DNA of 61,534 nucleotides, filler included. It is 5 parts of 5 records of this genome, joined end to end, with 100 filler letters (N's around TTAATTAATTAA, not from the genome) between each part and the next. Parts side by side here need not be neighbours in the genome. Positions count along the whole stretch, not along the records: positions 1 to 30,133 come from DRR723986_5524; 4 more parts are not named here. One strand, written 5' to 3'. Position numbers and translations under genes: made by a program. The notes beneath the pieces were generated by a model. The model searched no databases. It saw nothing but the letters and a program-made list of their open reading frames with translations, and was not told the origin of the DNA. Positions 10,327 through 25,382 of this stretch are shown in pieces (position 1 is the first letter of the stretch; the number at the start of each line of letters is the position of its first letter).

Positions 10327-10989
10327 CTGAGACTGATTGCCGAAAACCTGACCATCGATCGCGGCGGACGCCGGGTGTTTCAGGACCTGTCCTTTGATCT
10401 TCCCTCCGGCACGGCGCTGGTCGTGACGGGCGCGAACGGCATCGGCAAGTCGTCGCTGCTGCGGACGCTGGCAGGTCTTGTCGCGCTGGCTGGTGGCAAG
10501 CTTTGGCTGGAACAGGGAGAAGCCGACCGGTCGCCGGCTGAACACGCCCATTATTTCGGCCATCAGAACGCGGTCAAGGCAGCGCTTTCGGTGCTGGAAA
10601 ACCTGACGTTCTGGCAAGGCTTCACCTCACCGGTTTCGGCATCTGTCTTTGGCGCAACGGCAATGTCTCCCGAGGCCGCGCTTGATCTCCTCGGCATAGG
10701 CCACACGACAGACCTGCCCGCAGGATTTCTCTCCGCCGGTCAGACGAGGCGCCTGGCCCTTGCCCGGCTTCTGGTCACGCCCCGGCCGATCTGGCTGATG
10801 GATGAGCCGACATCGGCGCTCGACAAGGCATCGGAAGGCCAGCTTCTGGACCTGATGAACGGACATCTGACCGCCGGCGGCATGATCATAACTGCGACCC
10901 ACACCGATCTGGCCCTTGCCAGAACCAAGATCCTGCATCTGCGCACCGCTGATCCCGTTTCGCTGCACGAGGAGGATCTGCCCGCATGA
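10327..10989 (+). CDS. ccmA: Heme ABC exporter ATP-binding protein CcmA; probable CTG start
   Basis: GANGIGKSSLLR, LSAGQTRRLALARL, WLMDEP; in-frame extension (L)RLIAENLTIDRGGRRVF with GGAG 7 nt upstream. Confidence 0.93.
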   Translation: MRLIAENLTIDRGGRRVFQDLSFDLPSGTALVVTGANGIGKSSLLRTLAGLVALAGGKLWLEQGEADRSPAEHAHYFGHQNAVKAALSVLENLTFWQGFTSPVSASVFGATAMSPEAALDLLGIGHTTDLPAGFLSAGQTRRLALARLLVTPRPIWLMDEPTSALDKASEGQLLDLMNGHLTAGGMIITATHTDLALARTKILHLRTADPVSLHEEDLPA

Positions 10990-11657
10990 GTTCCTGGGCT
11001 GTTGTGCTGTTTCGGCGGGATCTTCGGCTGTCTGTGCGCGTCGGCGGCAGCGCGCTTGTCGGTGTGCTGTTCTTCCTGGCCGTTGTCACTGTCATTCCCT
11101 TCGGCGTCGGTCCGGATCTGAACCTGCTTTCCCGCATTGGTCCTGCCATCTTGTGGATCGGTGCACTTCTGGCGACGCTCCTCGGACTGGACAGGCTGTT
11201 TCAGGCTGATCGGGAGGACGGCACGCTGGACCTGATGCTGATGGCCGGACGGTCGCTGGAACTGCTTGTACTGATCAAGTGCCTGGCGCACTGGGTCGCA
11301 ACAGGCCTGCCGCTGGTGATCGCCGCCCCCCTGCTGGGCATCTTTCTCAATCTCGACCCCGTCGCCACGGGAGCCGTCACGCTCACGCTGTTGGTCGGCA
11401 CACCGGCCCTGACGCTGATCGGCGCCATCGGCGCGGCCCTCACCGTCTCGTTGCGCCGAGGCGGTCTTCTGCTGGCCGTGCTGGTGATACCGCTGGCCAT
11501 TCCCGTGCTGATTTTCGGCGTCAGTGCCGCGGATGCCGCTATTCATGATCCCGTGCCGTTTCTGACACCGTTCCTGATCCTGTGTTCGCTGTCGCTGATT
11601 GCGGCGGTGATCGGCCCGCTTGCCGCTGCCGCGGCGCTCCGGTTTGCAGGAGATTGA
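10986..11657 (+). CDS. ccmB: Heme exporter protein CcmB
   Basis: PFGVGPD, LDRLFQADREDGTLD, PLAIPVLIFG. Confidence 0.95.
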   Translation: MSSWAVVLFRRDLRLSVRVGGSALVGVLFFLAVVTVIPFGVGPDLNLLSRIGPAILWIGALLATLLGLDRLFQADREDGTLDLMLMAGRSLELLVLIKCLAHWVATGLPLVIAAPLLGIFLNLDPVATGAVTLTLLVGTPALTLIGAIGAALTVSLRRGGLLLAVLVIPLAIPVLIFGVSAADAAIHDPVPFLTPFLILCSLSLIAAVIGPLAAAAALRFAGD

Positions 11658-11737
11658 CGGCAATTTGACACCGCGCAATGCACCCTGCGGCATACTCGTC
11701 CATTGAAGCGGACAACGCTCTAGATTAGAACGGTTCC

Positions 11738-12505
11738 ATGGCAATTTGGGATTATGCAAATCCGACGCGATTTTTGAGGCTGGTCCAGGTGGTTTTGCCC
11801 TGGCTCATTGGCTTGTGCGTCATTGCGTTCGCCGCCGGGCTCTACATGAGCTTCTTCGTTGCGCCTGAAGACTATCAGCAGGGCGACACCGTGCGGATCA
11901 TGTATATCCACGTGCCGGCCGCCTGGCTCAGCATGATGTGCTATTCCGTGATGGCGCTGTCCTCACTTGGCACCCTTGTGTGGAAACACCCGCTGGCGGA
12001 TGTTTCCGCCAAGAGCGCGGCCCCCATCGGCGCGGCCTTCACCTTCATGGCACTCGTGACCGGATCGCTCTGGGGCAAGCCCATGTGGGGCACCTACTGG
12101 GTCTGGGACGCGCGACTGACGTCGGTCCTGGTCCTCCTGATCATGTATCTCGGCCTGATGACGCTCTGGCGCACGATGGAAGATCCGATCAAGGCCGGCA
12201 AGGCGGCAGCCGTGCTGACGCTTGTCGGTGCGCTGAACCTGCCGATCATCAAGTTTTCAGTCGACTGGTGGAATACGCTTCACCAGCCGGCCAGCGTCAT
12301 GCGCATGGACGGCCCGACCATTCATCCGGACATTCTCTGGCCGCTGCTGGTCATGGCGATCGCCTTTACGCTGCTGTTCTTCGTGTTGCATCTGATGGCA
12401 ATGCGTAACGAGATCCTGCGCCGCCGCGTGCGTGCCCTGCGCCTGCGCGCAGCCAGCGCTGCCCAGCCGGGCACAGCGGCTGCCACGGCTCAGCCTGCGG
12501 AGTAA
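11738..12505 (+). CDS. ccmC: Heme exporter protein CcmC
   Basis: RIMYIHVP, GSLWGKPMWGTYWVWDARLT, WWNTLHQ. Confidence 0.97.
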   Translation: MAIWDYANPTRFLRLVQVVLPWLIGLCVIAFAAGLYMSFFVAPEDYQQGDTVRIMYIHVPAAWLSMMCYSVMALSSLGTLVWKHPLADVSAKSAAPIGAAFTFMALVTGSLWGKPMWGTYWVWDARLTSVLVLLIMYLGLMTLWRTMEDPIKAGKAAAVLTLVGALNLPIIKFSVDWWNTLHQPASVMRMDGPTIHPDILWPLLVMAIAFTLLFFVLHLMAMRNEILRRRVRALRLRAASAAQPGTAAATAQPAE

Positions 12506-12693: not shown

Positions 12694-13310
12694 CGTCCCC
12701 CGATACCGGTGCCGGCCGGCACGGGCAGCAGACTGCCAAACGCGGTTTCCCGGTTCTGGTGCTGCTGCCCTTGGTAGTGTTCGCAGCGCTCGCCGCCCTG
12801 TTCCTGTTTCAGCTGACCCTCGGCGGCGATCCGCAGAAAATTCCCTCTGCGCTGATCAACAAGCCGGCGCCGGAATTCGACCTGCCGCCGGTTGAAGGCC
12901 TCACCGATGGTGACACCGCCGTTGCCGGGTTTTCCCGTCAGGATCTCATCGGCAAGATTTCCGTCGTCAATGTGTTTGCATCCTGGTGCGTGCCCTGCCG
13001 CCAGGAGCACCCGCTTCTGGAAGAGCTTGCAAAGGTCGAGGGCATCCAGCTTCTCGGTATCAACTACAAGGACAAGCCGGAAAACGCGCGCCGCTTCCTG
13101 GGCAGTCTCGGTAATCCGTATCAGCGCGTCGGCGCAGATACCGCTGGCCGCACCGCGATCGAATGGGGTGTCTACGGTGTGCCGGAAACCTTCGTCGTCG
13201 ATGGGGAAGGCACGATCCGGTACAAGTTCATCGGTCCGCTGAGCCCCGAAAGCTATTACGACGTCTTCCTGCCGGAACTGCAGAAGATCATGGACGGCAA
13301 CAAATCCTGA
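12690..13310 (+). CDS. dsbE: Thiol:disulfide interchange protein DsbE/CcmG
   Basis: PSALINKPAP, FASWCVPCRQEHP, GVYGVPETF. Confidence 0.95.
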   Translation: MTSPDTGAGRHGQQTAKRGFPVLVLLPLVVFAALAALFLFQLTLGGDPQKIPSALINKPAPEFDLPPVEGLTDGDTAVAGFSRQDLIGKISVVNVFASWCVPCRQEHPLLEELAKVEGIQLLGINYKDKPENARRFLGSLGNPYQRVGADTAGRTAIEWGVYGVPETFVVDGEGTIRYKFIGPLSPESYYDVFLPELQKIMDGNKS

Positions 13311-13472
13311 TCTTGCCAACCTTGTGGTGCCTGCCTGTCACCTGCGCAGGCCATTGTCCCCGCTGATTGTTTGCGGTGACAACGGCGAACCGGCCAAGCC
13401 CATTTACAAATCGCCACGGGGCCGTTCTAAAGTCCGGATCATCTTTTTCAGCCGATTCCGGAGAGGCCCGTC

Positions 13473-14393
13473 TTGAAAGTACTTGTGATCGGCGGTTGCG
13501 GGTTCATCGGGTCTCATGTCGTGGACAAGTGCCTTCAGCAAGGCTTGTCGGTGCGGGTCATGGACACTCGGCCGGAACTGTACCGGCCGCCGCTTCCCGG
13601 TGTCGACTACGTCTTCCACAGCCTGTCCGATCATCACCGGCTCGCCGACACCCTGTCCGGTGTGGATGCGGTGGTGCATCTGGCCAGCACAACCGTTCCA
13701 TCGACCTCGAACCTTGATCCGGCCGCCGACATCTCCGGCAACCTCGTTCCCACGGTTCGCCTTCTGGAAGCCATGCGGGCAAGCGGAACGAGGAAACTCG
13801 TCTTCTTTTCCTCCGGCGGCACAGTCTATGGCATCCCGACAAAGGATCCGGTGCCGGAAGATCATCCGCTGAACCCGATCTCTTCCTACGGCATCGTCAA
13901 GCTGGCGATCGAACAGTACCTGCGCATGGAACAACAGCTCCACGAGCTCGAGTTCGTCGCCCTTCGTCCGGCGAACATCTATGGACCGCGCCAGGCACAG
14001 GTCGGCCTTCTGGGCGTGATCGGAACCTATCTGCGCAAGGTGGCGGAGGACGCCCCCATCGAAATCTGGGGGGACGGCAGCGTCGTGCGCGACTTCGTTC
14101 ACGTCGAAGACATTGCCGACCTGTGTCATCGCGCCCTGATCTCCGGCGAGTCCGGCTGCTTCAACGCCGGAAGCGGCGAAGGCACGTCCATCTCGCAGGT
14201 CGTCGACATCATCGGCCAGACCACAGGTCGCACCCTGGAACCGGTCTACAAGCCGGGCCGCAACTTCGACGTGCCACGGGTGGTGCTGGATATTGCCAGG
14301 GCACGAGCAACATTCGGCTGGCAGCCTGCCGTTCCCTTGCGGCGCGGCATCGGAGAAACGTGGGAATGGGTGAAGCAGCACAGCGCACCTTGA
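13473..14393 (+). CDS. NAD-dependent epimerase/dehydratase (UDP-glucose 4-epimerase-like)
   Basis: GGCGFIG, SSGGTVYG, YGIVK (YxxxK), RDFVHVED. Confidence 0.9.
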   Translation: MKVLVIGGCGFIGSHVVDKCLQQGLSVRVMDTRPELYRPPLPGVDYVFHSLSDHHRLADTLSGVDAVVHLASTTVPSTSNLDPAADISGNLVPTVRLLEAMRASGTRKLVFFSSGGTVYGIPTKDPVPEDHPLNPISSYGIVKLAIEQYLRMEQQLHELEFVALRPANIYGPRQAQVGLLGVIGTYLRKVAEDAPIEIWGDGSVVRDFVHVEDIADLCHRALISGESGCFNAGSGEGTSISQVVDIIGQTTGRTLEPVYKPGRNFDVPRVVLDIARARATFGWQPAVPLRRGIGETWEWVKQHSAP

Positions 14394-14551
14394 TGTGCCG
14401 TTAGCGCTGGAACCTGCAGAAAATCGGCGACTGACTGAAACGGACCCGCCGCATCAGTTCATTTACCCATAATAAAATCGACGCTGGCATAGATTTCCCG
14501 GAAGCCTGCGGTCATTAGTGTCCCTAGGTTAATTGAGGGGATGATTTGCGC

Positions 14552-15670
14552 ATGAACGTGACCGACAGCGCGGCAAAGGTTCGACTGGAACAACTGACCG
14601 GACTGCGCTTTTTCGCAGCCTTGCTGGTGTTTGGCGTTCATTTCCGCTGGGATACCAGCGGCGACTTCGTCAAGACAATCGCCGAACAGGGCTATGTCGG
14701 CGTCTCTTTCTTCTTCATCCTGTCCGGCTTCGTGCTGACACAGTCCTACAAGACGAGGATCCTTGCCGGCACGATGTCCTTTCGCGACTACTTCCTGCTG
14801 CGCATTGCACGTCTGACACCGCTGCATTTCCTCACCGGATTGCCGTTTCTTTATTTCTCGATCATGCAGGTCGAGGCGATCTACTCGGAAGAATTCAGCG
14901 TCATCAAGACGGTTCTGAACCTGACCTACCTGCAGAGCTGGATTCCGGTTTCCTCGATCTATTTCTCTCTCAACGCACCGTCCTGGTCGCTGTCGGATGA
15001 AATGTTCTTCTATGTGTGCTTCTTCGGCCTGGTTGCGTTTTCACCGCGAAAGCTTGTGGCGGTGACCCTGGGGCTCGGTGTGGTGGTGTTCGTTTCCGCC
15101 CTGCTGGTTCAGGTATTCCTCGGAGATGTGATCTTCTTCGGCAAATACCCGTTCTCGCATTGGCTGTTCTATGTCTTTCCCGGCTTCCGCATTCTGGAGT
15201 TTCTGGTCGGCATGGTTCTGCATGAGGCCTGGCGTCGCGGCGTCCGGCTGCCCGGTGTGGTGCAGCCACTCAGCTATCTTCTTCTGTTCCTGGCGATGTG
15301 GCTGGCACCGGATGTCCCGGATCCCTTCCGCTATTCTCTGTTCTACCTGCCGGTCATCACACTTTTCTTCTATGCACATCTGACGGAAGGCGCCGCACTC
15401 ACACGGGTGTTTGCAACTCGCCCGCTCGTGCTTCTCGGCAATGCCTCTTTCGCCTTCTATCTTGTGCACCAGCCGTCGCTTCACCTGATGAACATCTTCC
15501 TCAGGCCGTCCATCCCGGCGGATATCGTTTTCTTTCCGGTATCGCTGTGCATCACGGCCGCGTTTTCGATCTTCCTCTACCGCATTTATGAGATGCCGGC
15601 GGAGCGGGCGCTGAAATCATGGGTGAAGGGAAAGCGGTCCGCACAAACACCGAACGAGGCAACGTCCTGA
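14552..15670 (+). CDS. Acyltransferase family 3 (OafA-like membrane acyltransferase)
   Basis: LTGLRFFAALLV, GVSFFFILSGFVL, WSLSDEMFFY, LGNASFAFYLVH. Confidence 0.9.
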   Translation: MNVTDSAAKVRLEQLTGLRFFAALLVFGVHFRWDTSGDFVKTIAEQGYVGVSFFFILSGFVLTQSYKTRILAGTMSFRDYFLLRIARLTPLHFLTGLPFLYFSIMQVEAIYSEEFSVIKTVLNLTYLQSWIPVSSIYFSLNAPSWSLSDEMFFYVCFFGLVAFSPRKLVAVTLGLGVVVFVSALLVQVFLGDVIFFGKYPFSHWLFYVFPGFRILEFLVGMVLHEAWRRGVRLPGVVQPLSYLLLFLAMWLAPDVPDPFRYSLFYLPVITLFFYAHLTEGAALTRVFATRPLVLLGNASFAFYLVHQPSLHLMNIFLRPSIPADIVFFPVSLCITAAFSIFLYRIYEMPAERALKSWVKGKRSAQTPNEATS

Positions 15671-15812
15671 CGCATCAAATTCCGCGTCTCGCTGCGGTGA
15701 GCCGTTTAACATAATCTCAATGCTGACGGCGGATTATTGCGGCGAACCGGCCAATTTCAGGCCGGATACCGCCAGCCGCCACCGGTCAGATTGGCGCCAA
15801 CCATGAGTATTC

Positions 15813-16442
15813 TTGTTGCTTTCCGAACTCGTCCTTTCCGCCCTGACTGATGTGATCCTTGCCTGTGAGCTATTTTTTCTCGCCGGCCTGAGCCTGCGTC
15901 CGGGCATTCAGACCTTCTCACCTGCCTGGATCTGGAGCCTGACACTTGCATTGATCGGGCTTGCCTCGATGCTGGGTGCCATTGACCACGGGTTCTTCGA
16001 AACAATCGGTCACGAAGCGCACCGTCCGCTTGTGATCGCAACGCGCATCGTCATCGTTCTGGGCAGTCTCAGCATGATCGTCGCGGCCAGCTTTCAGTAT
16101 CTGTCCTCGCCGCTGCGCCTGGGATTTGTGGCTGCCGGCGTCCTGGGTGCACTCTGGCCGGTCTTCATGATCCTGACTTCCGACGATTTTCTGTCCGTGA
16201 TCCTCTATTATTCCGTCGGCCTGATATTCCTGCTGGTGCTGAGCGTTGTCCGGTTCCGCCAGAACAAGGGAACGCTGCCGATGATCGCCGGCATTCTTCT
16301 CACGCTGGGTGTATCAGCGATGATCCCGATGCAGAGCCCGGGGTTCTGGGGTCTTGGCCTCTATGGAAGCTATCACGTCCTGCTGATGCCAATCGTCGTG
16401 CTTCTGTATTTCGGCGGCCGCTGGTTCAGGACCACGAGGTAG
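15813..16442 (+). CDS. Multi-pass membrane protein, DUF6962-like
   Basis: About 7 TM segments; TDVILA, ASMLGAIDHG, C-terminal YHV. Confidence 0.6.
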   Translation: MLLSELVLSALTDVILACELFFLAGLSLRPGIQTFSPAWIWSLTLALIGLASMLGAIDHGFFETIGHEAHRPLVIATRIVIVLGSLSMIVAASFQYLSSPLRLGFVAAGVLGALWPVFMILTSDDFLSVILYYSVGLIFLLVLSVVRFRQNKGTLPMIAGILLTLGVSAMIPMQSPGFWGLGLYGSYHVLLMPIVVLLYFGGRWFRTTR

Positions 16443-16451
16443 GGTAACCCC

Positions 16452-17591
16452 ATGCGCACGGCTTCCATCCCCGTTGAAGAAAAGGTCCAGGAAACGGAAG
16501 ATCTTGAAACGATCTTTCATCGGATGACGGAGTTCATGCCGCAGCGGGTCGCCGATGCGGTACGGGCGGCCTCGCGCAGGGTGCCGGTCGCGGCGCATCA
16601 GGACGTCATCGTCGAGGGCGAGACAAGCGACGGGCTCTACATCGTTCTCGAAGGCACCTTCGGCATCTATCGCAAGGGTGACGGCACGGCCTCGGACCAC
16701 CGTGTTGCGGAAATTGGGCCGGGACAGCCTTTCGGCGAAATGGCGCTTCTCGACGGTGAACCACGCTCGGCAACCGTGCGTGCTGAAACAGCCGGTGCCG
16801 TGCTTGAAATCGAGCCGGAGCGGATCCTCGAACTGGCCGATGGCGAAGCCAGACTTGCAGAATTCAAGGGGGCTCTGGCATTCTTCGTGACACGGCGCAT
16901 GCGCGCCTCCACGCAGGAGCATGTCGCAGCCCTGCAGCGTGAACTGGACCTCCGGAACGAACAGCAGCAGTTCGGCAAGTTTTTCGTCTATTCGCTGATC
17001 ATGATGTCCATCGGCACGCTGGTGAACAACGTCCTGGCGCGGACGATCGTCAACGTGGACGTCTATACCGAAGTCTTCGCCTGGCAGTATCTCGCCATCC
17101 TGATGGTGCCAAGCCTCTTTGTCATCCGGCACATGGGCATTTCGATTTCGGCGCTCGGACTGACAACCGTCGGCCTGAAGAAATCCCTGATCGAGGGCGC
17201 GATCATTTCGGTCGGGCTTTGTATCTTTGCCTGGGGACTGGCGGCAGTGCTCAAATATTTCGACGCGCTACCCGGCAAGCCACTGCCCTTCAACCTGCTG
17301 GGAACACTGAGCTACTTTCTTCACAGCGCCCTGCAGGAAATCATCGCCAGGGGCTTTCTGCAGTCTTCCTTCCAGCGTTTCCTGGGAGACCAGGGCAAAT
17401 GGCGGTCGGTCCTTCTCGCCTCGGTGCTGTTCGGAATGTTCCACCTTCATTTCGGCATTCCGGCCGTGCTGATGACAATCGGCACCGGATTTATCTTCGG
17501 CTGGATCTACATCAGGCATCAGAACATCGCCGGTGTGATCCTGATTCACTACATGATGGGTGTCGCGGCCTTCAATACAGGCTTGATCTGA
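16452..17591 (+). CDS. Cyclic-nucleotide-binding domain fused to CPBP (CAAX/Abi) intramembrane metalloprotease-like domain
   Basis: FGEMALLDGEPRSATVRA (cNMP); QEIIARG, FGMFH, HYMMG (CPBP motifs). Confidence 0.85.
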   Translation: MRTASIPVEEKVQETEDLETIFHRMTEFMPQRVADAVRAASRRVPVAAHQDVIVEGETSDGLYIVLEGTFGIYRKGDGTASDHRVAEIGPGQPFGEMALLDGEPRSATVRAETAGAVLEIEPERILELADGEARLAEFKGALAFFVTRRMRASTQEHVAALQRELDLRNEQQQFGKFFVYSLIMMSIGTLVNNVLARTIVNVDVYTEVFAWQYLAILMVPSLFVIRHMGISISALGLTTVGLKKSLIEGAIISVGLCIFAWGLAAVLKYFDALPGKPLPFNLLGTLSYFLHSALQEIIARGFLQSSFQRFLGDQGKWRSVLLASVLFGMFHLHFGIPAVLMTIGTGFIFGWIYIRHQNIAGVILIHYMMGVAAFNTGLI

Positions 17592-17615
17592 GACGCAAGC
17601 CTAAGCTAGTGCTGC

Positions 17616-18584
17616 TTGCTCGACCCTATCGCTGCAGGTTGGAACGACATGATTGCCCGTGACTATTTCATACCGCGACCAGCCATCTACTATCGCGATT
17701 TCTGCTTTTATCTGGCGCTTTTTGTCGTTGGGTTTGCGTGGGGTCTGAACGCCTCCTGGCCGATGGTTATCCTGCCCTGGCTGCTGGCGACATTCGGCCT
17801 GCACCGCGCAGGACTTTTCTGCCACGAAATCGTTCACATCAAGGATGACAAGCTGCGCGGTTTCCGGGCGCTCTACACCTGGACGGTGGCGCTCATCGTG
17901 ATGGTTCCACCGCTGCGGTTTCAACTGCCGCATCTGGCCCATCATCGGCTCGGCATTTTCGGAACGCCCGAGGATCCGCAATACCCGCTCGTGCGCGGCA
18001 ATGCGTTTGCCATGGCCATGGTTCTGCTCGTGATCCCCTTTGTGGTGCCCTTTACCAACCTTCTGATGACGGTGACCGCCGCGCTCGGTGCGTTCCGGGT
18101 CGAAGCTGCGCTCGATCGCTGGGCGACGGAGAAGCTCGGCTTTTCGCTCAGCTCCGCCCTGACACCGGAACAGCAGGCCGAAGTGACCCGGCACGCCCGG
18201 GTTACGCTCGCGCTCTTCATTGCGGCAATCATCTTCTTCCCCGCGGCGCTGCCTTTCTATTATGCCGTCCTGGTTCTGGGCTGGGCGCTTTTGACCGCGC
18301 GTATCCCGCTGGAACATGAACTGGAACGCCTGGCCGAAACCTCCGGACGGGAAGACCAGATGATCGACAGCTTCACGATCGAGTCTCCGCTGGCCCTGAT
18401 CGTGCAGCCTGTTGGGTTCCGCTTTCATACGGCGCATCACATGTATCCCGGGGTGCCCTATCACAATCTGCCCGCACTCCACGAGGAGCTGAAGCGCACC
18501 ATTCCCGAGTACCGGGACAGCATCATTTCGCTCTGGACCGCGATCAGCGGCCCCAAACGCCGTCCTGCAAATTCTCTTCATTGA
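17616..18584 (+). CDS. Membrane fatty acid desaturase
   Basis: Three His boxes HEIVH, HLAHH, HTAHH and PGVPYHNLP; alternative ATG at 17649. Confidence 0.9.
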   Translation: MLDPIAAGWNDMIARDYFIPRPAIYYRDFCFYLALFVVGFAWGLNASWPMVILPWLLATFGLHRAGLFCHEIVHIKDDKLRGFRALYTWTVALIVMVPPLRFQLPHLAHHRLGIFGTPEDPQYPLVRGNAFAMAMVLLVIPFVVPFTNLLMTVTAALGAFRVEAALDRWATEKLGFSLSSALTPEQQAEVTRHARVTLALFIAAIIFFPAALPFYYAVLVLGWALLTARIPLEHELERLAETSGREDQMIDSFTIESPLALIVQPVGFRFHTAHHMYPGVPYHNLPALHEELKRTIPEYRDSIISLWTAISGPKRRPANSLH

Positions 18585-18600
18585 TTTAGAAAGCCCGCCG

Positions 18601-19833
18601 ATGAAAGACGTTATCCGCCAGCTCGCAGAAGCCATGTCTGCGGCCTCTCCCGATGCGCAGTTCGAAGTCCGCTACTGGGACGGAACCGGCTTCTCCATCG
18701 GGACCGAGCCAGAGTTCATTCTGCATTTCAAGAACGAGCGGGCTCTCTCCAGGGTGCTTTCGGATGCCTTCATGGGCTTTGGCGAGAGCTACATGCTGGG
18801 CGACATCGAGGTGGAAGGCGACATCAAGAAGCTCTTCTACCTGGGCTTTGCCATTGATTTCGCGGAACGGCCCATGTCGTTGATGCTGCGGATCAAACTG
18901 GCCTTTCACTTCCTGCGCGCACGCAACACCATTGCCCGCTCGCGCGAGAACATTTCCTTCAGCTACGACATCGGCAACGATTTTTACGAGATCCTGCTCG
19001 GAAAGGGCATGATCTACACCTGTGCCTATTTCACCTCGCCCGACAACACGCTGGATGAAGCACAGAACAACAAGCTCGAACTGGTTTGCCGCAAGCTGTG
19101 CCTGAAGCCGGGTGAACATGTTGCCGATCTCGGTTGCGGCTGGGGCGGGTTCCTGATGTATGCCGCCGAAAACTACGGCATCACGGGCGTAGGCTTCACC
19201 ATTTCGGCAGAACAGCGCGACTATGCGATTCAGAAGATCGCCGAGCGCGGCCTCTCCGACAAGATCGAGATCCGCCTGCAGGACGCTCGCGAAGCGGACG
19301 GCCTTTACGACAAGGTTGCCTCGATCGGCATGGTCGAACACATGGGCAATGCCCAGATCGCACCGGTCTTCGAACGGATCGCACACATTCTCAAGCCGCA
19401 GGGCCTTGCTTTCGTCCACACGATCGGCAACGAAATCCCCCGGCCGATCGACCCCTGGATCGACAAATACATCTTCCCGGGAACTCAGGCATCGCCGCTG
19501 ACGACCATGGTCGAGGCTGCCGGCAACAATGATCTCTACATGATCGACCTTGAGAACATCCGGCTGCACTATCCACCGACGGTCAAATACTGGCTCGCCA
19601 ATTTCGACGCCAATATCGACCGTATCCGCGAAATGTATGACGACACCTTCGTCAGAAGCTTCCGTCTGTATCTGGAAGTCGCAAGTTCCTCCTTCAGCTG
19701 GGGCGACAACCGGCTGTACCATCTGCTGATGACCAGGGGCCTGAAAAACGATGTCCCGATGACCCGGGAGCATCTGGTTCTGCCGAAGTCCGGCACTTCC
19801 CCGACCGGTACATCTTCAGAAGGTGGTGCATGA
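18601..19833 (+). CDS. cfa: Cyclopropane-fatty-acyl-phospholipid synthase family SAM-dependent methyltransferase
   Basis: YDIGNDFY, MIYTCAYF, DLGCGWGG, SIGMVEH, WIDKYIFPG. Confidence 0.9.
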   Translation: MKDVIRQLAEAMSAASPDAQFEVRYWDGTGFSIGTEPEFILHFKNERALSRVLSDAFMGFGESYMLGDIEVEGDIKKLFYLGFAIDFAERPMSLMLRIKLAFHFLRARNTIARSRENISFSYDIGNDFYEILLGKGMIYTCAYFTSPDNTLDEAQNNKLELVCRKLCLKPGEHVADLGCGWGGFLMYAAENYGITGVGFTISAEQRDYAIQKIAERGLSDKIEIRLQDAREADGLYDKVASIGMVEHMGNAQIAPVFERIAHILKPQGLAFVHTIGNEIPRPIDPWIDKYIFPGTQASPLTTMVEAAGNNDLYMIDLENIRLHYPPTVKYWLANFDANIDRIREMYDDTFVRSFRLYLEVASSSFSWGDNRLYHLLMTRGLKNDVPMTREHLVLPKSGTSPTGTSSEGGA

Positions 19834-21047
19834 CGGAACCCGTCCATGTGGCAGTGATCTATACGGACGCAGGCGGTGGCCACAGGGCCAGCGCCTTCGC
19901 CCTGAAAGCATGCCTCGAAGGGTCCGGCAGATACCGGGTCAGCCTGATAAATCCCTATACCTCGCTGATCCCGCATCTCGACCTCTTCAGCCGCTTCGGA
20001 TCACGCACAGGGGAGAATATCTACAACGAGGTCATCTTGCGTCAGGGACGTACCGGCCTCACCTGCTGGCTGTTTTATGCAGCCTTGCGCTTGAACTACG
20101 TCTTCTGCGAACCGCCGGCCATCAGCATTCTTTCCCGGCATTTCGAGGACATTCGCCCGGACATCGTGCTGTCGGTCATGCCGCTCGGCAACCGGGTGAT
20201 GCTGGAGGCGCTGAAACGCTACCGCGCTGGCATAACGGAAGGCCCGTTGCCGGAAGGCGCCGTCATGATCACGGACTGGGCGGAACTGGCAAAGGGTGTC
20301 TGGTTTCCCAATCGGGCCGACTACCACGCAATTTGCGGCACGCAGGACGCCCTGCGGAATGCCGAAAAGCTTCCAAAGCTTGCCGGCAAGATCCATGCGA
20401 TGGGCGGCTTGCTGATCCGGCCGGAATTCACCGACCCCACCCAACGCTCCAGCCGGGAAACGCTGAACCTCGATCCTTCCAGACCTGTCGTGACCGTGCT
20501 CTATGGTGCCCAGGGCAGCATGCGCATGATCGAACTGGCAACCGCAATGCGCGACATTCCACATAACGCCCAGGTGGTGTTTCTTTGCGGCCGGAACGAA
20601 GCGCTTGCCGATCAGCTGCGCGCCATGGACCTGCCTTTTCCGGTCCAGGTTCTCGGGTTTACCGACAGGGTCGCCCAGTATCTTTCCGCCAGCGATCTCT
20701 TCATTGGCAAGCCGGGTCCGGGCAGCACCAGCGAAGCCATGGCACTTGGCGTATCCATGCTGCTCGACAAGAGCCTGGCGCTGCCGCAGGAAGCTGCGGT
20801 CCTGCGCCACGTGACGAAGACAGGAGCCGGACTGGCCTTTTCGACGTCCTCCGATTTCAGCGAGAGTTTCAAGGCCGCCATGTCCGCCATCGAGAGCGGC
20901 GAGGCGCGGCAACCGGTTGCCGCCAACACATCGCCCGCCGACATTCTTGAGATCATGGACCGCATCGGCGCTTCCCGTGTTCCGGCAGCAGGCTCCTTGC
21001 AACCAGCCGGTGAATTGCCGCGCGCCCGGCACGTGTCCAGAGCCTGA
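19830..21047 (+). CDS. MGDG synthase-like glycosyltransferase (GT28)
   Basis: DAGGGHRASA, ITD, CGRNEAL, GFTDRV, KPGPGSTSEA, LPQE; ATGA-coupled to cfa. Confidence 0.87.
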   Translation: MTEPVHVAVIYTDAGGGHRASAFALKACLEGSGRYRVSLINPYTSLIPHLDLFSRFGSRTGENIYNEVILRQGRTGLTCWLFYAALRLNYVFCEPPAISILSRHFEDIRPDIVLSVMPLGNRVMLEALKRYRAGITEGPLPEGAVMITDWAELAKGVWFPNRADYHAICGTQDALRNAEKLPKLAGKIHAMGGLLIRPEFTDPTQRSSRETLNLDPSRPVVTVLYGAQGSMRMIELATAMRDIPHNAQVVFLCGRNEALADQLRAMDLPFPVQVLGFTDRVAQYLSASDLFIGKPGPGSTSEAMALGVSMLLDKSLALPQEAAVLRHVTKTGAGLAFSTSSDFSESFKAAMSAIESGEARQPVAANTSPADILEIMDRIGASRVPAAGSLQPAGELPRARHVSRA

Positions 21048-21050
21048 CCG

Positions 21051-21983
21051 ATGCCTGAGGACGATCAGGGCCCCGCGACGGGCGGCAGCCGCCCTCAAGA
21101 GCATGACCTGAAGATCAGGGTCGTCTACAATCCCCGCACAGGCCGCAAGCGCGAGAAGCGTTTCAAGGCGGTAATGGCGCTGCTTGAGGCACGCGGTCAC
21201 ACGTGCGAAATCCTGATCACGACGAAGGCGGGCGATGCCGCCGGTTTCGTTCGGGAAACCACATCAGACAACGCCGATATCCTCGCAATCGCGGGCGGCG
21301 ATGGCACGATCAACGATGCAATCCAGGGTGCCGGCCCGCAGACGCCGCCCTTGGGGCTCATACCGCTCGGCACGGCGAATGTGCTGGCGCACGAGCTCGG
21401 CATCGGCACGGATCCACACCGGATCGCGAACTGCCTTGCGGAAGCGCGCATCCTTAAGATCCGGCCAGGCCAGGTCAACGGGCACCGCTTCATGATGATG
21501 GCCGGCATCGGGCTGGACGCCCAGGTGGTTTCGGATCTCAGCCGCGCCACCAAGACCCGCTTCGGCAAGGCCGCCTATCTGATCGAAGTTTTCCGGACAC
21601 TGCGGCGATGGTCCTGCCCGCCGGTGGACGTCCGGCTGGACGGTGAGCCTGAAAAGGCAGCGACACTGATCGTCAGCCGTGGCAAACGGTATGGCGGGAC
21701 ATTTGTCCTCGCACCGAATTGCGACCTCGCCAACCCGTCTTTTTGCGCAACGATATTTCCTTCAGGCAGCGCTCTGTCTGTCTTCGAACGTTTTCTGCTG
21801 ATACCGGCAGGCCTGCTCCTGCGGCTTGGTCTCGTTGCCCAACGGCCGGCCAGAACAGTCGAAATCCTGGGCCCCCTGGGCGACCCGATACAGGCGGACG
21901 GCGATATCGTCGCGCATGCCCCTGCGCAGATCTCGGTTTGCGAGCAGCCGATACGCCTGTGCGTCCCGATGTCCCGGCGATAA
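21051..21983 (+). CDS. Diacylglycerol/sphingosine kinase family lipid kinase (YegS/DAGK_cat)
   Basis: YNPRTG, AGGDGTIND, PLGTANVLA, GIGLDA, QADGD. Confidence 0.92.
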   Translation: MPEDDQGPATGGSRPQEHDLKIRVVYNPRTGRKREKRFKAVMALLEARGHTCEILITTKAGDAAGFVRETTSDNADILAIAGGDGTINDAIQGAGPQTPPLGLIPLGTANVLAHELGIGTDPHRIANCLAEARILKIRPGQVNGHRFMMMAGIGLDAQVVSDLSRATKTRFGKAAYLIEVFRTLRRWSCPPVDVRLDGEPEKAATLIVSRGKRYGGTFVLAPNCDLANPSFCATIFPSGSALSVFERFLLIPAGLLLRLGLVAQRPARTVEILGPLGDPIQADGDIVAHAPAQISVCEQPIRLCVPMSRR

Positions 21984-21998
21984 CACGAGCCTTTAAGA

Positions 21999-23165
21999 TC
22001 AATCTTCGCTTTCCAACCCGGCAAGATGGGCCAGCCGGCGGCATGCGCTCATCCAGTCGAAGTCTTCGCGCGCGGCAATGGGCGGCTCCGGTACAGTCGT
22101 CAACGCATACTCCAGCGCCTCGAGAGCCCCTTCCAGCTCGGTGTAGAAATGGGCGTTGGGATAGGCCTTATAGGGAAGGTTGCCCGGACAGTTCGGCAGG
22201 ACGACATGCCGGCCGGCAACCAGCGCATCGGCGGTTGCCGTGCACAGGATTTCGCTGCGCGAAGGGTTCACCATGACCCGGTATCGTCCGATATCGGACC
22301 AGAACCGCCGGTTCGGTCCGAAGAACCGTAAATCCGCACCTTCCTCTCGTGCGAAGGTGCGAAACTCTGCTTCATCGCGCCCTCCGCCAATGACATCGAT
22401 GGGCCGTTTTGCACGGGCAGCGATGCGGGCGAGGTCGTCCAGGCCTTTCTCCCAGAGGAAAGCCCCGAGAAAATAGATCCCTTCGGTTTCCTGCGTAACG
22501 AGAGGCACCTGCGCGTAACCGGGCATGACACCGGTCACCCGTTCCACAGGCATTGTGATGCCCGGCAGGGTGAGGGCGGGCGACAGGCTGAGGGGCAGAT
22601 CGATGCGCAGGCGCAGGGCGCGGCCGTGCAGATAAGATACCAGCCGGGCGAGGCTGTTTGGAAACGGCAGCCCGGACATGCGGATGTAGGTTTCATAATC
22701 CGTCATGCTGAGGCCGATCGTCTTGTCCGCCCGGATGCCCCTGCGCCCGGTCGTTACCGGATACCAGCACAGATGCTCCGGCTCGCTCGCGATAAGGCAC
22801 CGGGCCGGCGGCGCGGCGCGGTAGACGTCTTCCATCGGCACGATCGACCCCATGCCTGCCACAAACCTTGCCCGATAAGGCCGGCATTCCGGAAATTTGT
22901 AGGGTCCGAAGGCTTCAAGTTCCGTCTGGAGCCAGTCGACCTGCTCGTCAAAATCGACGAAACGGGTCTCGCCCCACAGCCGTTGTTGTGAAACCTCATC
23001 CAGCCAGGGAAGAACATAGACAACCCGATAGCCAAGCGTTGCCAACCCGCAGGCGTGCCACAGCGAGATGAAGGATGGTCCGGTCATCCACGGCAGAGCG
23101 GCACTCGTCAGAACCGCAAAGTCATGGATCTCTTGACCTTTGGTACGTTCGCCAGACAGGGGCAC
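21999..23165 (-). CDS. Plant/algal-type digalactosyldiacylglycerol synthase (DGD1/DGD2-like GT4)
   Basis: TSAALPWMTG, VLPWL, EPEHLCWY, TDYETY, GIYFLG..LWEKG, YRVMVNPSRSEILCTATADAL, FDWMSA.RRL; GTG start with GGAGA RBS. Confidence 0.82.
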   Translation of the reverse strand: MPLSGERTKGQEIHDFAVLTSAALPWMTGPSFISLWHACGLATLGYRVVYVLPWLDEVSQQRLWGETRFVDFDEQVDWLQTELEAFGPYKFPECRPYRARFVAGMGSIVPMEDVYRAAPPARCLIASEPEHLCWYPVTTGRRGIRADKTIGLSMTDYETYIRMSGLPFPNSLARLVSYLHGRALRLRIDLPLSLSPALTLPGITMPVERVTGVMPGYAQVPLVTQETEGIYFLGAFLWEKGLDDLARIAARAKRPIDVIGGGRDEAEFRTFAREEGADLRFFGPNRRFWSDIGRYRVMVNPSRSEILCTATADALVAGRHVVLPNCPGNLPYKAYPNAHFYTELEGALEALEYALTTVPEPPIAAREDFDWMSACRRLAHLAGLESED

Positions 23166-23414
23166 TTGTCTCCAGTTTCAACAGCCAGAACCACGGGCAA
23201 CGATCAGCCAGCGCCCTGAAGCGAGGGAGGCGGCAGGCTGGCGCGAGACACCAGAACACATGATTCTCCGCCCGAGACAATCCACCATCGCAGGTCACGA
23301 AAGCCAGACAGGCCAGAACGCTAACGCCCGTTTCGACCTGTATTTTCCACAAGACGCCTGGCACGCCAAATGGTGAGGCCTTGTCACAAACGCGCGAATG
23401 AGGCCGTCTAAGAC

Positions 23415-23438
23415 GAAAGTCACCCGCTCGTGACTTTC
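23415..23438. promoter_or_regulatory. Perfect 9-bp inverted repeat in divergent promoter region
   Basis: gaaagtcac-N6-gtgactttc. Confidence 0.45.
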
Positions 23439-23492
23439 GGTTGAGTGCTCCATTGCATATTTTAGGGGCAATCGAACAAGGAATTGAGCCAA

Positions 23493-24266
23493 ATGGTGGG
23501 ATCGTTTTCCCGGAAGGCCGGCAAGGCCCTCCGCACCGCGCTTATTGTAACCGGCGGAATAGTTGCCCTGGCCGCGCCAATCAACGGCGCGCAGGCGCAA
23601 CCCGAAAAAGTCATCGAACTGTTTACCAGCCAGGGCTGCTCCTCGTGCCCGCCGGCCGATCGGCTGGCGGAAAAGCTGGTGCAGGAAGATAACAACGTCC
23701 TGACCATGGTGATGCCCGTCGACTACTGGGATTATCTCGGCTGGAAGGACACGCTGGCAAGTCCCGTCAACTCGCAGCGTCAGCGGGCCTATGCCGCGCG
23801 GCGCGGCGACCGGTCAGTCTACACCCCGCAAATGGTGATCAACGGCGAGGAACACGTCGTCGGCAGCCGCGAAGGCGATGTAAGGGCCGCGCTGGCACGT
23901 ACCGACCCCTTTACCGCGACAATCGACCTGAAGATTACCGACATGGTCGTCCAGGCAACGGTGAATGGCTCCCTGCCCAAGGGCTTCAACATGGCGACCG
24001 TCTATTTCCTGCGCATGCAGGATGAAGCCCTCGTTGATATCGGCCGTGGCGAAAACGCGGGCCGCAAGGTGCGTTACGTCAACGTGGTGCGCAATCTGCA
24101 GCCGATGGGGATGTGGTCCGGCGGCCAGGAGACATTCCGCATGCCGAAGTCCAAACTGATGCTGAAAGGCGACGCCCGCTGCGCAGTTGTCGTGCAGCTT
24201 GAAAATCCCGACGGGCCCGGCCGGATCATTGGCGCGGCAACCATGAACAAGAGCGGCGGTCTGTGA
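23493..24266 (+). CDS. DUF1223 thioredoxin-like secreted protein
   Basis: ELFTSQGCSSCPPAD, VDYWDYLGWKD, VYTPQMVING. Confidence 0.93.
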   Translation: MVGSFSRKAGKALRTALIVTGGIVALAAPINGAQAQPEKVIELFTSQGCSSCPPADRLAEKLVQEDNNVLTMVMPVDYWDYLGWKDTLASPVNSQRQRAYAARRGDRSVYTPQMVINGEEHVVGSREGDVRAALARTDPFTATIDLKITDMVVQATVNGSLPKGFNMATVYFLRMQDEALVDIGRGENAGRKVRYVNVVRNLQPMGMWSGGQETFRMPKSKLMLKGDARCAVVVQLENPDGPGRIIGAATMNKSGGL

Positions 24267-24488
24267 ACCGCCGCTGTGGTGTGGCCAAATATCAATTCCC
24301 TCTGAAAAACGAACCCGCCGGCTTCAAAGTCGGGTTGTAACCCCTGAGAAAACTGCTACCCCTTGCCCCGTTCGGCCGCCCGTTGAACCGTGAACGCCTT
24401 GTTGGCGCACGGCTTGCAAGACCCAGTGGCCGGTCAGGTTCTCTGCTTTGCCGGCGCCTGGTGAAGCAAATCGGTCCTGGGGGAACGC

Positions 24489-25382
24489 ATGAAGTTGAAG
24501 CGCAGGCTTCAGATAGCCTTATTGAGCATCGTTTTCGGTGTGATCGTTCTGGGTCTCAAGATCGGCGCCTACCTGCTGACCGGCTCCATAGCGCTTTATT
24601 CCGACGCGTTGGAAACGACGGTCAATATCGCGTCCGCCATCGCAACGCTTGCAGCCGTCTGGTTCGCCGCCAAACCCGCCGACAGCAACCACCCCTACGG
24701 CCACGACAAGGTTGAGTATTTCGCGGCGGTTCTCGTCGGCGTTATGATTGTGCTTGCCGCCCTGTCGATTTTCCGCGCGGCGTGGCTCGGCTTCATCAGT
24801 GGCGACAGTCCGGAATATTCGCCAGCCGGTATCGGCATGAACCTGCTTGCCGCCGTCATCAACGGCGCCTGGGCGCGTTACCTGATGAAATATGGCAAAC
24901 ACGCAAGATCACCTGCGCTTGTTGCGGACGGCAAGCACCTGATGACCGATGTGGTCAGCTCCGTCGGGGTTCTGGGCGGTGTTGTGCTGGTGATGCTCAC
25001 CGGCTGGAAAGTCATGGATCCCGCGCTTGCGGTTCTTGTCGGCCTCACCGTTCTCTGGTCCGGCTGGGGCCTCGTCAAGGAATCTGTCGGCGGACTGATG
25101 GACGAAGCTGCCTCGCACGACACATTGGACAAGATCCGTGTTCTGATTTCCGAACATGGCGAAGGCGCCCTGGAGGCACACGACCTGCGCACTCGCATTG
25201 CCGGCAAATCCACCTTCATCGATTTTCACCTGGTGGTGCCGGGCGAAATGTCCGTCGACAAGGCACATGAGATCTGCGACCGGATCGAGATTGCCATTGT
25301 CGAAGATGTCCCCGGAGCCCGGATCACCATTCACGTCGAACCGGAACACAAGGCCAAGCATTCCGGCATTGTGGTGCTCTAG
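24489..25382 (+). CDS. Cation diffusion facilitator family transporter
   Basis: GSIALYSDALE, HPYGHDKVEY, ADGKHLMTD, HDLRTR, IHVEP. Confidence 0.94.
   Translation: MKLKRRLQIALLSIVFGVIVLGLKIGAYLLTGSIALYSDALETTVNIASAIATLAAVWFAAKPADSNHPYGHDKVEYFAAVLVGVMIVLAALSIFRAAWLGFISGDSPEYSPAGIGMNLLAAVINGAWARYLMKYGKHARSPALVADGKHLMTDVVSSVGVLGGVVLVMLTGWKVMDPALAVLVGLTVLWSGWGLVKESVGGLMDEAASHDTLDKIRVLISEHGEGALEAHDLRTRIAGKSTFIDFHLVVPGEMSVDKAHEICDRIEIAIVEDVPGARITIHVEPEHKAKHSGIVVL

Follow-up and report, generated by a model that had tools for sequence, protein, structure and literature searches.

Arabidopsis DGD1 and DGD2 are UDP-galactose:monogalactosyldiacylglycerol (MGDG) alpha-1,6-galactosyltransferases of glycosyltransferase family GT4, and the structure of DGD2 (atDGD2) is available as PDB entry 8p6s. 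In Alphaproteobacteria, including phosphate-starved Agrobacterium, Mesorhizobium and SAR11, mono- or diglycosyl-diacylglycerols are produced by Agt/GTcp, also of GT4, and by Pgt, a member of family GT21. Cyanobacteria and Cyanidiales employ DgdA, a GT4 enzyme of the same reaction class that catalyses the second galactosylation of MGDG; it is related to SqdX and has an N-terminal Glycosyltransf_like_4 domain, whereas in DGD1/2 Pfam shows only the C-terminal GT1 domain (PMC4742570). Agt, of ~334 amino acids (aa), acts on diacylglycerol, and a homologue is listed for Labrenzia (Roseibium) aggregata (PMC8231724). Pgt is processive and encoded by a different gene, according to an extract of Sebastian et al. 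(PMC4796936). The present work concerns a gene at positions 21999..23165, on the minus strand of a 61,534-nucleotide stretch of DNA (the window, meaning the whole stretch that was analysed), which encodes a DGD-type GT4 glycosyltransferase of 388 aa, designated P0001. By their descriptions, Agt and Pgt are set apart from it.

In the same extract of Sebastian et al. (PMC4796936), diglycosyl-diacylglycerol is abundant in the bacterial fraction of phosphorus-depleted seawater, and the synthesis of digalactosyldiacylglycerol (DGDG) by marine heterotrophs 'awaits further characterization'. An extract of Sato 2019 (PMC6946739) reports that DGD1 has homologues in some proteobacteria and states the origin of plastid DGD1 as unresolved. 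The existence of proteobacterial DGD1 homologues is thus not new, and the view taken in the first-pass annotation of this DNA, that the family is purely eukaryotic, has to be abandoned, as several distinct bacterial DGD-like lineages were also found here. In the literature searched, supplements aside, there was no description of an MGD-like/DGD-like module in Alphaproteobacteria or of a DGD-type gene paired with an MGD-type GT28 and galE, no account of altered donor residues and no characterised bacterial DGD homologue. Papers on Labrenzia cyclopropane-fatty-acid (CFA) synthases (PMC6213206) and on Polymorphum (PMC3281065) had no bearing on the glycosyltransferases. The clade of P0001 is a real bacterial offshoot of the DGD family and, in its mechanism, an odd one.

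P0001 belongs to the DGD branch of GT4

The 388-aa open reading frame (ORF) was confirmed with precisely the boundaries given, 21999..23165; it is encoded by the minus strand, a point left unstated in the first-pass annotation. It starts with a GTG codon at 23165, is closed by a stop codon, and is preceded by a ribosome-binding-site-like tetramer, GGAG (23170..23173, minus strand), read from the sequence 4 nt 5' of the GTG. The GC content of the gene (0.60-0.62) is host-like, as had been noted, with flanks at 0.57-0.64. All twelve motifs that had been picked out were found in the translation and in the order given. The collinearity with Arabidopsis DGD was upheld by a real alignment, well above chance level: in a phmmer search of all PDB chains, P0001 matched 8p6s with an E-value of 7.5e-35 (query residues 10-383, chain residues 4-392), while the second-best match was at E 0.96 and no other glycosyltransferase was found at E ≤ 10. 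The similarity to DGD2 is therefore full-length and above that to any other GT4 enzyme.

The only Pfam domains detected in P0001 were PF13692 and PF00534, covering residues 227-329 and both slightly below their gathering scores, and an NCBIfam scan returned no family. As in DGD2, Pfam sees only the C-terminal GT1 domain; there is a single Glycos_transf_1 and no Glyco_transf_4 N-domain, unlike the two-domain arrangement of DgdA. No DgdA- or SqdX-like proteins appeared in the match lists of P0001 from the PDB, word-indexed and profile searches. An AlphaFold2 model built from 39 sequences had a mean predicted local distance difference test (pLDDT) score of 90.9, and Foldseek placed its GT-B fold closest to 8p6s (E 1.3e-27, template modelling (TM) scores 0.79/0.81, 26% identity), followed by PimB' (E 1.4e-12, TM 0.57). 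P0001 represents the minimal catalytic core, without the N- or C-terminal extensions of plant DGDs. The long N-terminal stretch found ahead of the domain in eukaryote-type proteins of 600-1000 aa is absent, and P0001 ends near DGD2 residue 392, without the tail at 401-473.

A word-indexed search identified 46 relatives of P0001, some of them carrying the JGI label 'digalactosyldiacylglycerol synthase'. P0001 was aligned with 38 of these (alignment A1), leaving out one near-identical sequence, three close relatives of retained rows and four fragments. When the profile made from A1 was searched against 1.84 billion representative proteins, 292 were recovered at E ≤ 1e-30 and 784 at E ≤ 1e-10. 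Eukaryote-type DGDs came after the members of the P0001 clade, at 190-260 bits, and the generic GT4s of two genomes scored ≤ 47 bits against the DGD family profile. The PDB, profile and Foldseek searches and the trees described below bear out the first-pass annotation in assigning P0001 to the DGD1/DGD2 branch of GT4: it is a true DGD-type protein and not a generic bacterial GT4.

An alphaproteobacterial host had also been proposed, correctly. The GT28 protein encoded beside the GT4 gene is 98% identical to that of Roseibium sp. ROS1, and the closest genome locus is from Roseibium aggregatum (90%), which places the window in Roseibium. In the region 19000-24500, contigs of four independent runs align without indels and are 95-99% alike; the gene junctions are bridged by contigs of three of the four (X14, X15 and X16), one piece covering the whole region, and the locus is therefore no assembly chimera. 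Six RNA-library runs contain about half of the sampled words; what aligned were pieces of related strains, in the form of long contigs, one of them 48 kb in length. In comparisons with three Roseibium/Stappia orthologues (L001-L003), the ratio of nonsynonymous to synonymous substitution (dN/dS) for the GT4 gene was 0.078-0.089 at dS 0.74-0.79, indicating purifying selection.

Active site of the P0001 clade

Residue roles were taken from an extract of the DGD2 structure paper (PMC12022483), mapped via the HMMER alignment to 8p6s (DGD2 numbering), and tabulated for the 188 of 194 family proteins that span at least 300 profile positions, including 44 from the P0001 clade and 120 of eukaryote type. 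The phosphate contacts Thr21, Gly22 and Lys243 are invariant in the clade (44/44) and retained in the eukaryote-type rows. Position 313, which contacts galactose O3', is Glu in all 44 clade members and Asp or Glu in the eukaryote-type rows, and position 321, at the ribose, is Asp (26) or Glu (18) in the clade and Glu in the eukaryote-type rows. The modelled lipid (MGDG) pocket of DGD2 is likewise kept, with His129 and Trp132 in 44/44, Tyr154 in 42/44, Tyr157 in 39/44 (the others having Phe) and Ser103 in 40/44.

The UDP-galactose contacts of atDGD2 are not all retained. Asn26, a galactose O6' contact, is present in none of the 44 clade members, which have Ile (18), Leu (16), Phe (9) or Val (1), whereas 117 eukaryote-type rows have Asn and three have gaps. 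The second O6' contact, His151, is found in all 120 eukaryote-type rows and in none of the clade, where it is replaced by Met in 40 and by Thr, Val, Tyr and Leu once each. Lys238 (phosphate/O2'), present in 119 eukaryote-type rows, is Arg in 23 clade members, Ala in 8, Ser in 7, Lys in 3 and Gly in 2. P0001 itself has Ile, Met and Ala at the three positions. The equivalent of His151 is conserved in GT4 structures, and its mutation abolishes the activity of teSPS and BshA, according to the same extract (PMC12022483). Judged from the alignment, the residues that bind the galactose 6-OH in DGD2, including the conserved His, have thus been replaced, a feature that the first-pass annotation had missed. 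As P0048, the nearest outlier to the clade, retains His151, the His-to-Met change arose on the stem of the P0001 clade.

With both O6' side chains replaced by hydrophobic residues, either the donor sugar or its binding mode probably differs from that of plant DGD. In our reading of these residues, the acceptor side would be DGD2-like while the donor pocket around sugar C6 would differ, and the clade would either use a donor that does not need the His contact or bind the sugar differently. The product need not be alpha-Gal-(1-6)-beta-Gal-diacylglycerol. Because a whole clade thrives without the 'essential' GT4 histidine, nature has in effect tested here how retaining GT-B enzymes recognise their donors.

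Distribution of the clade

Named relatives of P0001 include proteins from Pseudodonghicola, Roseibium suaedae, Breoghania, Rhodospirillum, Thalassobaculum and strain BAL199, and from the gammaproteobacterial genera Endothiovibrio and Thiorhodovibrio. When one genome per species was scanned for the pattern, 34 loci were recovered, distributed over 33 contigs and at least 14 named genera. These belong to the Stappiaceae (Roseibium, Stappia and Breoghania), the Rhodobacterales (Pseudodonghicola, Antarcticimicrobium and Albimonas) and Rhodospirillales-type genera (Thalassobaculum, Tistlia, Caenispirillum, Terasakiella, Thalassospira, Pararhodospirillum and Rhodospirillum), with further loci in Candidatus Endolissoclinum and a few metagenome-assembled genomes (MAGs). 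The clade is thus mostly one of marine Alphaproteobacteria. One 52-kb contig of alpha proteobacterium BAL199 carries two paralogues of the clade (L013 and L022).

The expectation that such genes would be rare in bacteria was borne out. A DGD-like match at E ≤ 1e-30 was present in only 2 of 401 evenly drawn Pseudomonadota genomes. In the Stappiaceae, 8 of 132 genomes have a DGD-like match, seven at E ≤ 1e-185 and one, a distant form, at 7.5e-63.

The conserved lipid-gene module

The GT28 gene (19830..21047, plus strand) encodes a 405-aa MGD1-like protein, a predicted diacylglycerol beta-hexosyltransferase. Its PDB matches were atMGD1 (4wyi, E 2.3e-26, residues 4-340), UgtP (1.7e-13) and MurG (0.0068), and its GGGHRASA segment aligns with the same motif of MGD1, so that the GGGH bearing the MGD1 catalytic His is kept; the numbering of that residue as His155 derives from the chain offset and from its mention in the extract of PMC12022483. 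Relatives of this protein are named 'MGDG synthase family glycosyltransferase' or '1,2-diacylglycerol 3-beta-galactosyltransferase' in their sources. P0001 is paired, in genomic terms, with a GT28 of MGD1 type. In the Stappiaceae, a GT28 orthologue (E ≤ 1e-148) occurs in the same seven of 132 genomes as the close GT4 orthologue, ~1 kb away from it; with this query, a close orthologue is absent from the other 125 genomes, two of which have only relatives of 28-30% identity. Such exact co-occurrence argues strongly for a joint function of the two glycosyltransferases and for gain and loss of the module as a unit.

The GT28 gene lies in a tight co-directional run on the plus strand, with -4 to 25 nt between neighbouring genes. 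The run opens with a gene (16452..17591) for a 379-aa fusion of a cyclic-nucleotide (cNMP)-binding domain (PF00027, 1.1e-18) and an Rce1-like/CPBP intramembrane protease domain (PF02517, 3.2e-15). It is followed by genes for a 322-aa membrane fatty-acid desaturase (17616..18584; PF00487, 3.3e-29) and a 410-aa methyltransferase of the CFA synthase family (18601..19833; PF02353, 1.5e-75), the end of which overlaps the GT28 start by 4 nt. The NCBIfam CFA synthase models gave 258-285 bits for the methyltransferase, all under their cut-offs. This protein is 97-98% identical to its L001-L003 orthologues, where its neighbours are 79-93% identical, and its gene is thus unusually strongly conserved within the cluster. 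The last gene of the run (21051..21983) encodes a 310-aa YegS/BmrU-type soluble lipid (diacylglycerol) kinase with PF00781 (9.3e-26) and YegS_C domains and a TIGR00147 score of 130.5 bits (cut-off 118.65). The GT4 gene is convergent on it, the two stop codons being 15 nt apart.

Upstream of the run, also on the plus strand, are genes for a 306-aa short-type UDP-hexose 4-epimerase-like short-chain dehydrogenase/reductase (SDR; 13473..14393), a 374-aa Acyl_transf_3 membrane acyltransferase (14546..15670; PF01757, 1.8e-21) and a 209-aa DUF6962 protein (15813..16442; PF22285, 2.7e-37). The SDR matches UDP-glucose 4-epimerases in the PDB (4zrm, 9.6e-58), and its score with the galE model TIGR01179 was 174.6 bits, below the cut-off of 262.3.

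Conservation of the module was assessed by tblastn of its proteins against the 34 loci (coverage ≥ 50%, identity ≥ 35%), ten of which are cut short by contig ends. Matches were found for GT28 in 26/34 loci, the cNMP/CPBP fusion in 25/34, DUF6962 in 24/34, the desaturase in 23/34, the CFA synthase-like protein in 16/34 and the lipid kinase in 14/34. The acyltransferase was matched in just 6/34, and its membership of the module is doubtful. The SDR epimerase, counted at any identity, was matched in 22/34 loci and directly abuts the GT4 gene in 12 of these; in Tistlia (L032) and Caenispirillum (L026), the abutting gene is a galE above the NCBIfam cut-off. Gene order varies between bacterial orders, and the linkage of the module genes is kept. 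Among 80 metagenome loci compared, the full module was found only in those of the P0001 clade (L091, L106 and L107). Scans of the window for promoters and terminators gave counts near shuffle expectation.

Phylogeny and origin

In a FastTree phylogeny of 188 rows, 120 rows, mostly of 450-1000 aa, formed one clade (support 99) that includes DGD2 of Lotus and Ricinus, an MMETSP transcript and sequences from Chromera, Chlorarachnion, Parmales, Prasinoderma and Diacronema. The P0001 clade and P0048 formed a second group (support 100), and ~23 short proteins (370-440 aa) fell between the two, those with names coming from Flexibacterium corallicola/Pseudovibrio sp., two Pseudomonadota MAGs, the GTDB genome G023 and Bacteroidota MAGs (Lewinellaceae and Sinomicrobium). 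Names are available for some rows only; the others are labelled 'eukaryotic' or 'bacterial' according to the clade in which they fall and their length. A quick IQ-TREE search on 88 rows under LG+C20+F+G4 with posterior mean site frequencies (PMSF) was rooted with eight generic GT4s from G001, the nearest genome, used for comparison, and G023. In this tree, support by the SH-like approximate likelihood ratio test (SH-aLRT) was 100 for the eukaryote-type rows, 99 for the P0001 clade, and 96 for a branch that joins the eukaryote-type rows to 20 short forms and excludes the P0001 clade. The same branch had an SH-aLRT of 95 in a 45-row LG+G4 tree. Forcing the P0001 clade and the eukaryotes together cost 36.3 log-likelihood units (approximately unbiased test, p-AU 0.012; 45 rows), the test being made under the simpler LG+G4 model and on a group chosen after a first tree was seen. 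All SH-aLRT values are from short searches, and the outgroups are very distant, at the low bit scores given above, with long branches.

Among the short forms, those termed canonical keep Asn26, His151 and Lys238. They include P0129 (Flexibacterium corallicola), P0148 and P0204 (Pseudomonadota MAGs) and a fusion protein encoded by a metagenome contig (L064:33-4413, GC 0.64). They share with P0001 the family, a bacterial source and a catalytic core of 370-410 aa, and differ from it in retaining the three residues and in their position nearer the eukaryotes in the tree; some of them carry a fused YdjM membrane domain. In L064, genes for an MGDG-synthase-like GT28 and for a PlsC-like acyltransferase precede, in an operon-like arrangement, the gene for the YdjM::DGD-like fusion, which has the canonical Asn/His/Lys and matches atDGD2 with an E-value of 2.2e-59, against 7.5e-35 for P0001. 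As at the P0001 locus, the DGD-type gene of at least one canonical form (L064) has an MGDG-synthase-like gene and a desaturase gene beside it. The MGD/DGD pair of L064, bacterial like that of the window, is the nearer of the two to the plant enzymes.

The first-pass annotation had offered two origins for the P0001 gene, namely transfer from an alga or kinship with the ancestor of the plastid enzyme. A recent transfer of an algal DGD gene into Roseibium would be in keeping with a family best known from plastid-bearing eukaryotes, with the reported association of Roseibium species with algae and corals, and with the patchy occurrence in bacteria (a DGD-like match in 6 of 72 genomes within the genus). 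It is nevertheless extremely improbable, given that the eukaryote-type and P0001 clades are separate in both trees, that the identity to atDGD2 in the fold alignment is only 26%, that the GC content is host-like, that the active-site signature of the clade occurs in none of the 120 eukaryote-type rows, and that a bacterial module, conserved as such, accompanies the clade, whose members come from Hyphomicrobiales, Rhodobacterales, Rhodospirillales and some Gammaproteobacteria. Within the limits of these trees, the P0001 gene is not an algal import. That the P0001 clade is instead the direct bacterial sister or the donor of plastid DGD1/DGD2 gains some credit from the shared family and fold, from an MGD1-like GT28 partner as in plastids, and from Trp132, which is common to the clade and the eukaryotes and absent from most other bacterial forms; the statement on DGD1 origin in the extract of Sato 2019 also leaves room for it. 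It is still very unlikely, as the supported branch joins the eukaryotes to the canonical bacterial forms, the forced grouping is rejected, and the canonical L064 protein, with an MGDG-synthase-like neighbour of its own, is the better match to DGD2. Kinship with the plastid enzyme therefore stands only in the loose sense of a shared family, and, again within the limits of the trees, P0001 is not the nearest kin that plastid DGDs have among bacteria and lies outside the eukaryotic clade that holds the characterised enzymes. The diversity of bacterial DGDs, including canonical forms beside MGDG-synthase-like genes, provides material for a rooted analysis of the origin of DGD1.

Predicted function of P0001

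On balance, P0001 is probably the second-step enzyme of a bacterial diglycosyl-diacylglycerol pathway, acting on the product of the GT28, with the identity of the added sugar uncertain and with a donor or linkage that probably departs from that of plant DGD. What the analysis shows is homology and fold, the residue pattern, synteny together with co-occurrence, and the purifying selection on the gene; from these, acceptor, donor, product and physiological role are predicted. P0001 would be catalytically active, as a retaining GT-B enzyme within the DGD branch of CAZy family GT4, and would belong to a horizontally mobile module of membrane-lipid type present in a minority of marine Alphaproteobacteria. 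The MGD1-like GT28 would add a beta-linked hexose to diacylglycerol, and given the epimerase genes in the module, this hexose is probably galactose, with the linked epimerase as a possible supplier of UDP-galactose. P0001 would then bind the monoglycosyl-diacylglycerol in the lipid pocket that it shares with plant DGD2 and attach to it, in alpha linkage, a second sugar donated by a UDP-sugar. The resulting diglycosyl-diacylglycerol would be a bilayer lipid free of phosphorus. Its acyl chains would be modified by the desaturase and the CFA-synthase-like methyltransferase, diacylglycerol would be kept in balance by the lipid kinase, and control of the module may lie with the cNMP-binding membrane protein; the recurrence of cNMP-binding partners suggests, as an association only, regulation by cyclic nucleotides. 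The pair of GT28 and DGD-type genes is a concrete candidate route to DGDG in marine heterotrophs, which matters for the use of DGDG as a marker of phototrophs.

Several observations weigh against this assignment. With His151, Asn26 and Lys238 replaced, neither the activity nor the donor of P0001 is assured. The GT4 gene lies outside the plus-strand operon and is convergent to it, and 8 of the 34 loci have no GT28 in the available flank, several of them on short contigs. The DGD-like genes found in a polyketide synthase (PKS)-like cluster of G023 and a nonribosomal peptide synthetase (NRPS)-like cluster (L069) imply that the acceptors of the family are not always glycosyl-diacylglycerols. A diacylglycerol kinase is not obviously needed in a pathway that consumes diacylglycerol. 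A scan for PhoB boxes (CTGTCAT-N4-CTGTCAT, ≤ 3 mismatches) returned six in the window against 4.1 expected and none in 13000-24500, so that a role in phosphate starvation is unsupported, and the RNA-library contigs are evidence of the contiguity of the locus and not of its transcription.

P0001 might instead be active on another acceptor, for example diacylglycerol itself, a primer for polysaccharide synthesis, or a lipid alcohol of polyketide or other type. The relative in G023 is near a synthase-like ORF and genes for a radical SAM enzyme, an O-methyltransferase and a phosphopantetheinyl transferase (PPTase), that in L069 is near genes for an NRPS-like protein and a GT2, and the GT4 gene is not part of the GT28 transcription unit. 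This is rather unlikely in view of the exact co-occurrence with GT28 in the Stappiaceae and the retention of the DGD2 lipid-pocket residues, and a Pfam scan of the eight genes at 13473-21983 and two downstream (23484-25382) found no PKS or NRPS. A catalytically dead P0001, serving as a non-catalytic partner or regulator that binds a lipid or UDP-sugar, is suggested by the loss of the very His whose mutation inactivates related GT4s (extract of PMC12022483) and by the changes of Asn26 and Lys238 alongside it. It is, however, an unlikely account: Thr21, Gly22, Lys243 and both acids of the EX7E type are invariant or conservatively kept in 44/44 clade members, and the conserved nucleotide contacts together with the strong purifying selection make a loss of catalysis less likely.

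If P0001 is the second-step enzyme, a bolder extension may be considered, though it is speculative and for the present doubtful. The module would be a mobile, cNMP-regulated, plant-like MGD-then-DGD system in which a re-tooled donor pocket accepts a sugar other than galactose (e.g. glucose, a pentose or a 6-deoxyhexose), giving a head group that plants do not make. The plastid MGD1-DGD1 pathway would then derive from bacterial MGD/DGD pairs of this kind, especially canonical ones such as L064, and such pairs would in addition account for some of the 'DGDG' measured in the bacterial part of phosphorus-poor seawater samples.

Other bacterial DGD-like genes and minor observations

One Stappiaceae genome (G429) carries the distant DGD-like gene found with the clade profile (7.5e-63) and a distant GT28 (28%), which are unlinked, ~148 kb apart. 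This DGD-like gene may be of the canonical Flexibacterium/Pseudovibrio type. The DGD-like gene of G023 (L037; G023:C45:19000-38391), which lacks the Asn/His pair, lies between genes for a radical SAM protein and a TylF-type O-methyltransferase. It follows a synthase-like ORF of >2600 aa and precedes genes for a resistance-nodulation-division (RND) efflux system, a PPTase and a TMEM164-family protein, and the cluster is possibly one for a glycosylated polyketide-type lipid.

Cyclic-nucleotide-binding proteins recur beside DGD-like genes of three different clades. The fusion of cNMP-binding and Rce1/CPBP domains is encoded both in the window (16452-17591) and in the PKS-like cluster of G023 (L037:17763-18911), and the NRPS-like metagenome cluster, which includes a GT2 gene beside its DGD-like gene, encodes a protein with major facilitator superfamily (MFS), HEAT and cNMP-binding domains and a small cNMP-binding protein (L069:9120-12594). 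Upstream of the module in the window, at 10375-12505, are ordinary cytochrome c maturation genes for a CcmA-like ABC ATPase, CcmB and CcmC.

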